DNA of 8,931 bases, from positions 1-8,931 of the IMG/VR virus record IMGVR_UViG_2695420699_000009. One strand, given 5' to 3'. The notes under the pieces are model-generated. The model was not told the origin of the DNA, made no database searches, and saw only the letters and a program-made list of their open reading frames with translations. The position numbers and the translations under genes were made by a program. Positions 5,593-8,286 of the stretch are shown piece after piece. Each line of letters opens with the position of its first letter. Position 1 is the first letter of the stretch. This stretch comes from a virus. Its lineage: Duplodnaviria > Heunggongvirae > Uroviricota > Caudoviricetes.

Positions 5593-6018
5593 TCAATGCA
5601 CTGCCACAGCATTTCCTGCCGGGCCACCACGGTTCATCTGATTGAAACCGGCGATTGCCACCGCGACAAAATCATCAGCGTCTCTCACCAGTCGCTCCCG
5701 CGTCTCCACCAGCTCCCGAAAATAAGCTGAACTGTGGCTGCGCATTCTGGCCACCAGCAAAGGTGGCATTGCCTTTTCGATCGCTGGTAACAACGCCAGA
5801 ATTTTTTCAACTGCATCAGGGGTGTCTTTCTCTATCCAGCGGAAAATTTTCTGGGTATTGCGAGCCAGGGCTTCCGGATGGCTGTCGTCGTACAGTTCAG
5901 GAAACGTCATACCCAACTCAAAATAAGCCTGGGTTATTCCAGCTGCCGGAACTTTTTCGCCATCAGGACGCGCCCAGGCATTCATCGCCATGCGGATGTG
6001 TTCATGCTTGATTTTCAT
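5593..6018 (-). CDS. CII-like regulator (Rac YdaT-like), 141 aa
   Basis: Immediately follows the Cro-like gene on the same strand; ATG at 6018 preceded by AGGAGC at 7-nt spacing and overlapping the upstream gene's 3' end by 17 nt. Family assignment by position and recollection. Confidence 0.7.
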   Translation of the reverse strand: MKIKHEHIRMAMNAWARPDGEKVPAAGITQAYFELGMTFPELYDDSHPEALARNTQKIFRWIEKDTPDAVEKILALLPAIEKAMPPLLVARMRSHSSAYFRELVETRERLVRDADDFVAVAIAGFNQMNRGGPAGNAVAVH

Positions 6019-6283
6019 GAATCAAGCTCCTAGAAAGTGGTTGTGTTAACGTTTTGGTATCTTCCAGCTCGGGCCAAATATTCATCCAATCAAAAGGCCT
6101 TAGTTGCTGACGTGTAACTTCACCATTACTGGCTCGCTCAATAAGGACACATAACGATGCCCCTAACACTTGACCTTTACTCAATGCCTTTCTTAGATAA
6201 CCGATGCTGGTACCACACTCGCATGCAAACATACGCTGTTCATCTGACGAAAGAGAATTGAGAAATATTCTTAATTCTTCCAT
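6002..6283 (-). CDS. Cro-like HTH regulator (Rac YdaS-like), 93 aa
   Basis: First gene of the minus-strand operon, divergent from the repressor; ATG at 6283 preceded by AAGGAG at 5-nt spacing; HTH-like segment around TSIGYLRKALSKGQ. Confidence 0.75.
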   Translation of the reverse strand: MEELRIFLNSLSSDEQRMFACECGTSIGYLRKALSKGQVLGASLCVLIERASNGEVTRQQLRPFDWMNIWPELEDTKTLTQPLSRSLIHENQA

Positions 6284-6308
6284 AGCTACTCCTTAGTAAA
6301 CACAGCAA

Positions 6309-6390
6309 AGAATACCCATAGGTAAACAAAAGTCAATACCCATAGGTTGTTTACCTTGCGGTAATCGCATCTATTATTTACCTATGGATA
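6309..6390. promoter_or_regulatory. OR-like divergent promoter region with three copies of a 12-bp palindromic operator (consensus TACCyATrGGTA)
   Basis: Operators at 6313-6324 (TACCCATAGGTA), 6337-6348 (TACCCATAGGTT) and 6379-6390 (TACCTATGGATA, overlapping the repressor ATG). Candidate minus-strand promoter: -35 TTGACT (6336..6331), -10 TATTCT (6314..6309). Candidate plus-strand promoter: -10 TATTAT (6372-6377), placing the start at or near the ATG. Confidence 0.6.
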
Positions 6391-6803
6391 AATATGAATT
6401 TAGACGACAGCAACTCATCAAAATTCGTGATGAGAAATGCGATGGTAAAGCGGTTAACGTGGCCAGAAAGATCGGGCGCGAGCCTTCTTATGTATCAAGA
6501 ATGTTGTACCCAGAGGGGAAAAAGGGAAAAAAACGGATCGCTGATGATATGGTGGAGATTATCGAAGAGTCCTTTGGGTTACCCCGGGGATGGATGGATG
6601 GTATCGTTTCATCATCAACGAACACAGCCTCCAGTTATGAAACAAGGGTTCTAACGCCACGACAACGTATTTTTTTAGATCTCTTAGACGAACTGCCAGA
6701 AAGTGAAGCGGATAAATTATTAAAAACTCTTGAAGAGAAAAAACAGTATTACAATATGATCTACGAAGAAATCCGTAAAAAGAAAGCACAAAACGCATCA
6801 TAG
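6384..6803 (+). CDS. CI-type prophage repressor, 139 aa, XRE-like HTH with a DicA/RacR-like C-terminal region
   Basis: Divergent from the Cro-like gene. HTH-like segment AVNVARKIGREPSYVSRML. The C-terminal part (LTPRQRIFLDLLDELPESEADKLL...) resembles the DicA C-terminus as I recall it. No SD upstream, consistent with a leaderless transcript. Confidence 0.8.
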   Translation: MDKYEFRRQQLIKIRDEKCDGKAVNVARKIGREPSYVSRMLYPEGKKGKKRIADDMVEIIEESFGLPRGWMDGIVSSSTNTASSYETRVLTPRQRIFLDLLDELPESEADKLLKTLEEKKQYYNMIYEEIRKKKAQNAS

Positions 6804-6845
6804 CTCACCAAACAACTAGTCACCAGTTAAGACACCGCAAAAAGT

Positions 6846-6886
6846 TACCCATGGGTATTTACTTTTTAAATACCTATGGGTATCCT
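6846..6886. promoter_or_regulatory. OL-like operator pair and candidate rightward early promoter
   Basis: Same motif as in OR: TACCCATGGGTA (6846-6857, perfect palindrome) and TACCTATGGGTA (6871-6882), 25 bp centre to centre. Candidate -35 TTTACT (6858-6863) and -10 TATCCT (6881-6886) with a 17-bp spacer, firing on the plus strand. Confidence 0.5.
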
Positions 6887-7207
6887 TCTTTTCATGCCAA
6901 CCCACCCCGCCCCACAGAATGCAGGGCAATACTTTGAGTTACCAGGCAGTGGTCAGGGGTTAAGTAGCCAGCCCGAGGCGTAAGAACATGACGGCAGGGT
7001 TCAACTTTAATAACTATGCAGCAGGTTTTTGTTCCGCTACCCCGGCGTTAAGGGGAAACAGAGGATTTCTCAGTGGGCGAAGTCAAACATCAGAATGGAA
7101 GGCATCCAGGGATCAGCAAAGAAACAGCGATGGCGCTTTATATTGATATCAGCGCCATTGCCGGACAGGTAAGAATTATCAGAGCGGTAACTAAGCGGTA
7201 TGCGCCT

Positions 7208-7408
7208 TTACTTCAGAAAGTCTCTGGTGAGTGCACCGAAGATATTGTCAACGATTTCGTCATCAAACTGCGAGGACTCATCTTCAGTTACAAGGTGACC
7301 ACAATTTTTGCAGATGGCTCCCGCGAAACTGTCAGAGCCATGCGGTTTAAAGGATGTGTCAAAGACTTCGCCGCCACATTCTGGGCAAGAAAACTTGATT
7401 GTATTCAT
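7208..7408 (-). CDS. Small Cys4 zinc-ribbon protein with an acidic C-terminal tail, 66 aa
   Basis: Two CxxCG knuckles (CPECGG and CKNCGH) 20 residues apart. ATG at 7408 preceded by GAGAGGAAA at ~9-nt spacing; the ORF-track start at 7414 is a TTG. Oriented opposite to the surrounding plus-strand early operon. A plus-strand ORF (7073-7429) fully overlaps it; the zinc-ribbon motif decided the call. Confidence 0.55.
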   Translation of the reverse strand: MNTIKFSCPECGGEVFDTSFKPHGSDSFAGAICKNCGHLVTEDESSQFDDEIVDNIFGALTRDFLK

Positions 7409-7500
7409 AACCAATTTCCTCTCGAGTAACAGCCGCCTCAGAGGATACCACCTCGCCTGACGTGGTTAAAAGCAGGCAACGCTAACCACAAGGAGCCGAC

Positions 7501-7719
7501 ATGCAGAAACGAGAACCCGTCATCATCGCGCCAGACTATACCGATGATGAACTTTATGAGTGGATGCACCAGAAAATTAAGGCAGCGCAGGACCTGAAAT
7601 GGGCCAATGAAGCCAGGGCTAAGCAAGCTGAAAATCTGTCCGCTCTGGAGCAGGATATCACCAATCTGGAAAAAGCAGCGGCATTAAGCATTGCCAGAAT
7701 GATTACATACCCGCGTTAA
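7501..7719 (+). CDS. Hypothetical early-operon protein, 72 aa (same position and size as Qin YdfC, but not verified)
   Basis: ATG at 7501 preceded by AAGGAGCC at 5-6 nt spacing; TAA stop at 7717-7719; same strand as the dicF-dicB module. Confidence 0.6.
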   Translation: MQKREPVIIAPDYTDDELYEWMHQKIKAAQDLKWANEARAKQAENLSALEQDITNLEKAAALSIARMITYPR

Positions 7720-8059: not shown

Positions 8060-8117
8060 TTTCTGGTGACGTTTGGCGGTATCAGTTTTACTCCGTGGCT
8101 GCTCTGCCGCCCTTTTT
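8060..8117 (+). ncRNA. dicF: DicF-like small RNA (ftsZ-targeting sRNA of Qin-type prophages)
   Basis: TTTCTGGTGACGTTTGGCGGTATCAGTTTTACTCCGTGGCTGCTCTGCCGCCCTTTTT matches my recollection of E. coli DicF almost base for base. It ends in a GC-rich stem plus T-run and lies ~170 nt upstream of the dicB-like gene, as in the Qin dicB operon. Ends are approximate, since DicF is made by processing. Confidence 0.7.
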
Positions 8118-8286
8118 AAAGTGAATTTTGTGATGCGGTGAATGCGGCTAAGCGCACGCGGAACAGTTAAAACCAAAAACAGTGTTATGGGTGGATTCTC
8201 TGTATCCGGCGTTAATTGTTAACTGGTTAACGTCACCTGGAGGCACCAGGCACTGCATCACAAAATTCATTGTTGAGGACGCGATA

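Follow-up and report, generated by a model that had tools for sequence, protein, structure and literature searches.

The 8,931-base stretch of viral DNA analyzed here (hereafter the window; IMG/VR record IMGVR_UViG_2695420699_000009) is the early region of a lambdoid prophage of Escherichia coli. Within it, a short palindromic motif occurs in two clusters, one on either side of a gene for a 139-amino-acid (139-aa) repressor (6384-6803, + strand). We read this region as the right- and left-operator (OR and OL) immunity switch, that is, the lysis-lysogeny switch, of a prophage of the Qin/Rac/CP-933P kind, and we put the probability of this reading at about 0.85. The region has divergent repressor and cro-like genes, several operators laid over both of their promoters, a second operator cluster on a PL-type promoter, and a repressor with a helix-turn-helix (HTH) domain; the S24 (LexA-like) C-terminal domain of lambdoid repressors is absent. 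An earlier note, made from the letters of the window, had proposed a lambda-like switch, and this proposal is supported by the gene content, by the location of the sites on promoter-like elements and by the conservation of their positions together with the DNA-binding domain.

The operator motif

We scanned the window for the motif TACCYATRGGTA and compared the counts with those from 200 shuffled sequences. Exact matches occur three times, at 6313-6324, 6846-6857 and 6871-6882 (0.00 expected), and matches with at most two mismatches occur five times, all within 6313-6882 (0.49 expected; none of the 200 shuffles reached five). The two sites added by the looser scan, 6337-6348 (TACCCATAGGTT, which ends in GGTT) and 6379-6390 (TACCTATGGATA, with GGATA), carry one mismatch each. 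When the centre was relaxed to TACCNNNNGGTA, a sixth site, TACCTTGCGGTA, was recovered at 6352-6363. No shuffle matched the observed counts in the exact, two-mismatch or relaxed-centre scans, and the motif and its two clusters are real and non-random. A search for further copies beyond the window, covering 49.5 kb (the whole of a near-identical prophage and about 9 kb of chromosome), found four exact copies of TACCN4GGTA, all of them in this region.

We refer to the upstream sites as O1 (6313-6324, TACCCATAGGTA, exact), O2 (6337-6348) and O3 (6352-6363), which resemble OR1, OR2 and OR3, respectively, and O4 (6379-6390), which we list tentatively as a candidate extra operator. The downstream sites are OLa (6846-6857, TACCCATGGGTA, exact and a perfect palindrome) and OLb (6871-6882, TACCTATGGGTA, exact). 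Measured from centre to centre, O1 and O2 are 24 bp apart, O2 and O3 15 bp, O3 and O4 27 bp, and OLa and OLb 25 bp. The first sites of the two clusters are separated by 533 bp (6313 to 6846), and OLa begins 43 bp past the repressor stop codon.

These positions allow a closer reading of the earlier note, which had counted five copies of TACCyATrGGTA, three between the divergent genes and two about 45 bp past the repressor stop. The downstream pair is where it was said to be and includes the perfect palindrome, and the clusters do flank the repressor gene about 0.5 kb apart. The count of five is correct at up to two mismatches, but only three copies carry the exact consensus, and the site at 6352-6363 had been overlooked. 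Likewise, an upstream cluster exists, but its member at 6379-6390 spans the repressor ATG and is not intergenic. The spacing of 24-25 bp given for adjacent sites holds for 6313/6337 and 6846/6871 but not for 6337/6379, which are 42 bp apart.

Variation among closely related copies of the region separates the two halves of each site from its centre. In an alignment of six E. coli copies that are 93-99% identical, the outer positions of the five conserved sites (TACC and GGTA/GGTT) are variable at 0 of 40 positions and the central positions at 11 of 20, as compared with 28 of 197 for other non-coding positions (Fisher p = 0.006 and 9e-5, respectively). The variable centres retain an alternation of pyrimidine and purine. 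The invariant half-sites thus appear to behave like contacted bases, and the variation of the central bases could reflect tuning of affinity, or else recombination or gene conversion between related immunity regions. Since the six copies are not independent of one another, we treat this footprint-like pattern as a lead. In several strains the same T-to-C change is found in both O1 and O2.

O4 does not share this pattern. In the other five E. coli copies it reads GGACA (two mismatches), its right half consists of the conserved repressor codons ATG GAT A, the start codon being at 6384, and no relative outside E. coli has its left half, save for a degraded version in Salmonella. We considered 6379-6390 for the role of third right-operator site but, as relatives lack it and coding sequence makes up half of it, rejected it as the conserved one; at best it is an extra site confined to this lineage. 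A further resemblance to the operator, TACTCCTTAGTA at 6283-6294 (two mismatches; TACT…AGTA), lies over the Shine-Dalgarno sequence and start codon of the YdaS-like gene. A site of this type is also present in a Salmonella relative (L039), and the resemblance is probably coincidental.

Placement of the sites on promoter-like elements

A promoter consensus scan returned two promoter-like sites in the 100-bp intergenic region. A PRM-like promoter for the repressor gene lies on the + strand at 6350-6377 (-35 TTTACC, 6350-6355; 16-bp spacer; -10 TATTAT, 6372-6377), and a PR-like promoter for the operon of the YdaS-like and YdaT-like genes lies on the - strand at 6309-6336 (-35 TTGACT, 6336-6331; 16-bp spacer; -10 TATTCT, 6314-6309). 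O1 falls between the PR hexamers and shares 2 bp with the -10, and O2 adjoins the PR -35, with its centre 41.5 bp upstream of the predicted start of PRM transcription (6384). O3 supplies four of the six bases of the PRM -35, and O4 spans the predicted PRM start as well as the repressor start codon. Transcription from PR is predicted to start near 6302, giving a 19-nt leader in which AAGGAG stands 5 nt upstream of the YdaS-like ATG at 6283. The PRM -10 ends 7 nt before the A of the repressor ATG, and no Shine-Dalgarno sequence precedes that ATG, so the repressor mRNA would be leaderless, starting with the A at 6384.

On the far side of the repressor gene, a PL-like promoter directed toward ydfC-dicF-dicB can be placed on the + strand at 6858-6886 (-35 TTTACT, 6858-6863; 17-bp spacer; -10 TATCCT, 6881-6886). 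Its transcripts would begin at about 6893. OLa lies immediately upstream of its -35, and the last two bases of OLb begin its -10. This order of OLa, PL and OLb mirrors that of O2, -35, O1 and -10 at PR (the matching pair covers 20 nt and is 90% complementary). The position is identical to that of the annotated putative PL of phage mEp043 (NC_019706, PV340537), and relatives have better hexamers in the same register.

Conservation of the layout in related loci

We compared the region with about 35 related loci from several proteobacterial classes, counting offsets from the repressor ATG. These comprise 29 loci from a domain-alignment scan with one genome per species, the phages mEp043 and CharmingMan, and four look-up loci (L039-L042) with short-form homologues of the repressor. 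The scanned taxa include Edwardsiella, Klebsiella, Brenneria, Pantoea, Yersinia, Arsenophonus and Aeromonas, together with Paraburkholderia, Ralstonia, Alcaligenes, Ferrovum, Stenotrophomonas and one Xanthobacteraceae genome. Nearly all of the loci have TACCN4GGTA-type sites at -72/-73, -47/-48 and -32/-33. The equivalent of O1 was found at -71 to -75 (mostly -72/-73) in 32 loci and that of O2 at -47/-48 in 24. The last bases of this second site depart from GGTA in all but two loci, the most frequent endings being GGTT and GGTC, and it is preceded by CAA, which supplies the TTG of the PR -35, in 24 of 24. The equivalent of O3, at -32/-33 and thus corresponding to 6352-6363 of the window, is present in 30 loci, where its centre is less constrained. 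Across the family, the consensus reads TTACC-YRYR-GGTAA.

The downstream pair is conserved as well. Two sites 24-26 bp apart were observed in 27 of 32 related loci and in two of the four look-up loci (L039 and L040), at distances of 43-1875 bp past the repressor stop and often beyond other genes. Directly after the first site of the pair there is a TTGACA-, TAGACA- or TTGAT-like hexamer, and a TATATT-, TAATGT- or TATTCT-like hexamer starts in the last two bases of the second. In mEp043, sites stand at -72, -47 and -32 from the cI ATG, and a pair 25 bp apart is located 409 bp after cI on the annotated putative PL; CharmingMan has the same layout (-72/-73, -47/-48 and -32/-33, with a downstream pair 25-26 bp apart). 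A -10-like hexamer is present at -12/-13 in 23 of 32 loci and a Shine-Dalgarno-like tetramer before the repressor ATG in 0 of 32, suggesting that the leaderless layout is a trait of the family.

The 139-aa repressor

In the repressor, an N-terminal HTH domain (residues 1 to about 75) is followed by a DicA-like C-terminal domain of two helices (about 88-138). Database search and alignment show that residues 1-75 have 70-82% identity with the N-terminal domains of many S24/LexA-family proteins of 221-242 aa from Salmonella, Edwardsiella, Yersinia, Klebsiella, Pantoea and others, and residues 1-86 are 65% identical to those of the cI proteins of mEp043 and CharmingMan. The S24 self-cleaving domain that these longer relatives possess is absent from the 139-aa protein, which is therefore not a repressor of the cleavable CI type, and RecA-stimulated cleavage and induction are not expected. 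In its place, NCBIfam NF007257 (DicA) matches residues 86-136 only (E = 1.9e-5); over the whole protein the score is 24.5 bits, far short of the family's cut-off of 101. Aligned with K-12 DicA over 46 residues, the C-terminal domain shows 33% identity (E = 2e-7), and it is of nearly the same type as that of the phage Tritos CI, whose HTH differs. PHROGs places the protein in a 'transcriptional regulator' family, and RefSeq annotates it as a hypothetical protein. Sequence searches of Pfam, NCBIfam and the PDB gave no family for the N-terminal domain, and the PDB search with the repressor returned nothing better than E = 0.078.

An AlphaFold model of the repressor (predicted local distance difference test score, pLDDT, 85.5) has four short helices within residues 3-63, a disordered linker (77-87) and C-terminal helices at 92-103 and 106-138. 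The best Foldseek matches in the PDB are a Salmonella phage repressor (5d50), restriction-modification controller proteins, HigA and the N-terminal domain of lambda repressor. For these HTH_XRE-type domains of about 75 residues, the target-normalized TM-scores are 0.65-0.72 and the root-mean-square deviations 2.1-2.7 Å. The predicted recognition-helix residues S35, Y36, R39 and M40 are invariant across the family. As modeled, then, the repressor is a modular protein, with a lambda-repressor-like HTH, a short helical domain that presumably oligomerizes, and no self-cleavage domain.

The repressor is also a mosaic of domains, in that other bacteria have the same N-terminal domain joined to S24 peptidase domains of at least three kinds, and Tritos has the DicA-like C-terminal domain joined to a different HTH. 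Some E. coli protein entries (P0010 and P0019; 6394-6654) begin at an out-of-frame ATG at 6394 and return to the reading frame of the repressor past the A-rich run GGGAAAAAGGGAAAAAAACGG. They have the appearance of repressor genes that are frameshifted or mis-called, with the homopolymer run (6519-6537) as a likely slip site.

The YdaS-like and YdaT-like partners

Divergent from the repressor gene is a gene for a 93-aa YdaS-like protein (6002-6283, - strand), which we regard as the Cro analogue. Its match to Pfam YdaS_toxin (PF15943) scores 25.8 bits, under the gathering score of 30; it also matches phrog_35 and is named a YdaS family HTH protein in some RefSeq records. Next to it is a gene for a 141-aa YdaT-like protein (5593-6018, - strand), a CII analogue that matches Pfam YdaT_toxin (PF06254) with 38.2 bits, over the cut-off of 21, as well as the CII-like phrog_163. 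A perfect inverted repeat of the YdaT type, TTGATTN6AATCAA, lies at 6008-6025 and is the only exact copy in the window. It is centred on the start codon of the YdaT-like gene, at the end of the YdaS-like gene, and is a probable PRE-type control site.

Homologues of the YdaS-like protein (41-73% identity) are encoded in 23 of the related loci, and tblastn identified real homologues in the GC-rich loci L025, L026, L030 and L032. Because this gene accompanies the DNA-binding domain in most loci, those loci cannot tell the repressor from the Cro analogue as the protein that the sites follow. Five Klebsiella loci (L006, L009, L010, L012 and L013) are informative in this respect. They retain the N-terminal domain at about 80% identity, along with the sites at -73 and -33 and the pair downstream, and tblastn detected no YdaS-like gene within 6 kb, indicating that the sites follow the repressor's DNA-binding domain. 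Conversely, Tritos has a C-terminal domain like that of the window repressor, with a different HTH, a different Cro and no motif, which indicates that the sites do not follow the C-terminal domain. Taken across the relatives, most of which have an S24 peptidase domain where the window has a DicA-like one, the motif tracks the N-terminal domain. The five Klebsiella loci also lack the -47 site and are located upstream of a holin-like gene; they may belong to another kind of element that shares the repressor code, for example a tailocin-like cluster or a defective prophage. It is very likely, judging from lambda and CP-933P, that the Cro analogue uses the same sites.

Alternative explanations

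A chance origin of the repeats, or a mechanical duplication with no regulatory role, has only the shortness of the motif in its favor. No shuffle reached the observed counts, the positions of the sites are conserved across bacterial classes, and half-sites are invariant where centres vary. The comparative data already contradict this explanation, and we consider its probability next to negligible. The sites might instead be read solely by the YdaS-like Cro analogue or by some other factor, the 139-aa protein acting elsewhere or not being a DNA-binding repressor at all. Such a division of labor would accommodate the presence of the Cro analogue alongside the motif in 23 loci, as well as the hypothetical status of the 139-aa protein in RefSeq and its want of a Pfam hit. 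The Klebsiella loci, which hold the domain and the sites in the absence of a YdaS-like gene, argue against it, as does the predicted lambda-repressor-like fold of the N-terminal domain. Moreover, proteins annotated as cI or LexA-family repressors have this domain joined to S24 peptidase domains, and it is typical of autoregulation for sites to be located, as here, at -41.5 and on the -35 of the promoter of the protein's own gene. We consider this explanation very unlikely.

The downstream pair calls for a separate assessment, since its two copies could be mainly the arms of a terminator whose likeness to the upstream sites is incidental. A terminator scan marked 6846-6892 (+ strand) as a candidate intrinsic terminator of the repressor transcript. 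Together with their TTTA/TAAA flanks, the two OL sites pair into a stem of 16 bp that closes a 5-nt loop, and TCCTTCTTTT follows. For the 106-nt context the folding energy is -25.6 kcal/mol (z = -4.1), and the hairpin alone, at -21.4 kcal/mol, is the most stable among related OL pairs (the others range from -4 to -17.5). We found no other terminator-like hairpin between the stop codon at 6803 and 6846, and read-through into dicB would be expected to be harmful, given the known function of DicB. Against this, only five of the 16 stem pairs are G-C, the U tract is interrupted (tail UCCUUCUUUU), and the extended hairpin is not conserved in relatives. Any two near-palindromic sites can pair, so the stem is in itself no evidence of selection and covariation is uninformative; accordingly, when we sought covariation support for the hairpin among the E. 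coli variants we found none that was informative, and no compensatory changes single out the stem. An exclusively terminator role fails on the relatives. Their pair lies 43-1875 bp past the repressor stop, often after other genes, and usually has neither T tract nor extended stem, yet it always has a -35 directly after the first site and a -10 starting from the last two bases of the second. In mEp043, a separate canonical terminator stands upstream of the pair. Given that the pair of the relatives is so often distant and devoid of these terminator features, it is an operator first. The milder form, in which the pair is operator as DNA and terminator as RNA, is plausible, and overall we give an explanation of this kind somewhat less than even odds. 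That the pair serves additionally as a terminator in the present lineage is likewise a tentative suggestion, with the balance leaning against it.

Several points weigh against reading the region as an OR/OL immunity switch. The literature that we searched yields no binding, transcript-mapping or reporter data for this module. A Pfam search gave no family match for the repressor, PF00717 (S24) included, and its Foldseek matches are weak, with no E-value better than 1.5e-3. The choice of the repressor over the Cro analogue as the protein to which the sites belong depends mainly on the five Klebsiella loci. The PL hexamers of the window are weak, agreeing with the consensus at eight of 12 bases, and the promoter scan did not list them, so that the support for PL comes from the relatives. 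O2 and O3 are only 15 bp apart and for this reason may not both be filled together, unlike in the lambda scheme. Finally, where other strains have ydfA-ydfB on the + strand after PL, the window has an ECs_2282-type zinc-ribbon gene (7208-7414) on the - strand, opposite to the repressor gene, which makes the immediate cargo of PL in the window doubtful.

Prophage context

The gene order is that of Qin, Rac and CP-933P. Leftward of the YdaT-like gene, the - strand continues with genes for a replication-initiator-like protein, a DnaC/IstB-like ATPase and DUF1627, DUF977 and DUF551 proteins. On the other side of the repressor gene are ydfC (7501-7719, + strand), the small RNA DicF (8061-8112, + strand; 75 bits against an Rfam gathering score of 48) and then dicB, also on the + strand. 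The gene content is therefore that of a lambdoid immunity region, with an HTH repressor facing a YdaS-like Cro analogue, a YdaT-like CII analogue and replication genes to one side and ydfC-dicF-dicB to the other. In the near-identical prophage, the + strand runs on to an exonuclease gene and then to an integrase gene beside a tRNA-Ser gene. An Rfam scan found no RNA family in 6890-7500 and, further right, only DicF and a sub-threshold STnc100-like match just downstream of it (8124-8264, + strand; 34.5 bits against 47).

The zinc-ribbon gene has a promoter-like site of its own at 7425-7398, and transcription from PL would run head-on into it. The window keeps the conserved ydfA leader sequence (about 7035-7065).

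The region is widespread in E. coli. A 1.6-kb query around it is matched over its full length at 99% identity in chromosomal prophages of 37 complete genomes. Of 5426 complete E. coli genomes, 822 (about 15%), O157:H7 and O26:H11 strains among them, contain the 617-bp core (6284-6900) with at least 93% identity.

Proposed operation of the switch

The analysis shows the sites, their statistical excess, their location on promoter-like hexamers, and the conservation of sites and locations with the DNA-binding domain; which protein binds, the order in which the sites fill, activation from O2, and cooperativity or looping between OR and OL are inferred. Dimers of the 139-aa repressor most likely bind the 12-14 bp palindromes through the HTH domain. 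In a lysogen, dimers on O1 and O2 and on OLa and OLb would block PR and PL, whose -10 and -35 elements they would cover or abut. Occupancy of O1 and O2 would silence the YdaS-like, YdaT-like and replication genes, and that of OLa and OLb the rightward operon running from ydfC through dicF and dicB to the exonuclease and integrase genes. Repressor bound at O2 (-41.5) could also stimulate its own leaderless promoter, as lambda CI does at OR2. At higher levels, repressor would fill O3, which overlaps the -35, and perhaps also O4 at the transcription start, and thereby shut PRM off in negative autoregulation; with 15 bp between them, the O2-bound and O3-bound states may exclude each other. Cooperative binding to the pairs spaced 24-25 bp apart, and looping between OR and OL over 0.53 kb, are geometrically possible, as the earlier note had suggested.

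Once repression is lifted, the same sites would be taken by the YdaS-like protein, presumably beginning with O3, and the YdaT-like protein would act at 6008-6025, where it may drive establishment transcription toward the repressor gene. Induction would need an antirepressor or loss of the repressor. Transcripts from PRM would have to stop before the dicB operon. In a fuller version of the scheme, the same 37 bp located 43 bp past the repressor stop would be both PL operator DNA and an RNA terminator that insulates dicB, and O2 and O3 would form a toggle that makes activation and repression of PRM mutually exclusive. We regard this combination as rather unlikely to hold in all of its parts. If it does, one dimer placed at -41.5 or on the -35 would constitute a simpler autoregulatory toggle than the looping-dependent occupancy of OR3 in lambda.

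Comparison with known systems

The region is most like the PaaR2/YdaS/YdaT switch of CP-933P (Sp12 of E. coli O157:H7), which is the closest characterized system. There, the PaaR2 mRNA was found to be leaderless by rapid amplification of 5' cDNA ends (5'-RACE), PaaR2 and YdaS give overlapping footprints on the OR operators, and a PL with OL operators past the repressor operon is repressed by both proteins (PMC8630535). PaaR2 octamerizes in solution according to work cited in that paper (PMC8630535), and a YdaT operator (OM, TTGATTN6AATCAA) has been footprinted at the end of ydaS (PMC9986795). The two systems share a short non-S24 repressor divergent from genes of the ydaS and ydaT type (a likeness of arrangement), a leaderless repressor mRNA (predicted in our case), a multi-site OR over PRM and PR, a second cluster on PL, and the YdaT site, which is exact at 6008-6025. 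They differ in their operators, which in CP-933P are 18-bp palindromes with the half-site GTTTAGTAA and here conform to TTACC-YRYR-GGTAA, and in the number of sites (four inverted repeats, or three OR operators, and three OL operators there; three, plus one candidate, and two here). The paaA2-parE2 toxin-antitoxin genes that follow the repressor gene in CP-933P are absent after 6803.

Lambda, as described in textbooks and cited in PMC8630535, has a 17-bp operator palindrome, a spacing of 23 bp between O2 and O3, three OL sites, 2.3 kb between OR and OL, and a leaderless cI mRNA. The region resembles it in having divergent repressor and cro genes, two operators about 24 bp apart on the lytic promoters, one operator near -42 of PRM, a repressor mRNA predicted to be leaderless, and an OL on PL past the repressor operon. 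In contrast, the palindrome of the window is 12-14 bp long with an even centre, O2 and O3 are 15 bp apart, OL has two sites, OR and OL are separated by 0.53 kb, and the repressor lacks the S24 self-cleavage domain. We detected no sequence similarity to the lambda system, and the N-terminal domain of lambda repressor appears only as a weak fold match. The DicA/DicC region of Qin in K-12 shares the flanking ydfC, dicF and dicB genes and a homologous repressor C-terminal domain, and it has palindromes between dicC and dicA and also downstream of dicA around TTGACC. Its N-terminal domain and operator differ (TGTTAG..CTAACA-like), and its Cro analogue is DicC rather than a YdaS-like protein.

With mEp043 and CharmingMan, the window shares the DNA-binding domain (65% identity), the operator motif and site offsets, and the Cro family (73% identity in mEp043 and 50% in CharmingMan). 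Unlike the 139-aa repressor, their cI proteins have an S24 peptidase C-terminal domain; mEp043 further differs in having lambda-type CII and N and an OL placed 409 bp beyond cI, with another gene and a separate terminator in between. The records of these two phages have no operators annotated, and a full-text literature search returned nothing relevant on the site sequences, on TACCNNNNGGTA or on the operators or immunity of mEp043. Phage 933W has the same count of three OR and two OL sites, that is, five naturally occurring sites, each a 15-bp sequence with a central base pair (PMC3317979). We considered whether 933W has the same specificity and rejected this, since its 15-bp site has different conserved bases; 933W also gave no tblastn match to the repressor in the phage collection at E ≤ 1e-5.

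Significance

The design of the switch is ordinary and leaves the accepted picture of lambdoid regulation unchanged; its operator specificity is undescribed in the literature searched. The analysis sets out both the operator (TTACC-YRYR-GGTAA) and the arrangement of promoters for an immunity type present in about 15% of complete E. coli genomes, and it predicts which prophages share immunity. The DNA-binding domain, its Cro partner and the operator layout range from Enterobacterales to Betaproteobacteria, with a C-terminal domain that is exchangeable, and the comparison illustrates cleanly, in nature, how SOS inducibility can be lost from a prophage that keeps its operator code. Since the switch would silence the dicF-dicB cell-division inhibitors, it also bears on the physiology of the host.

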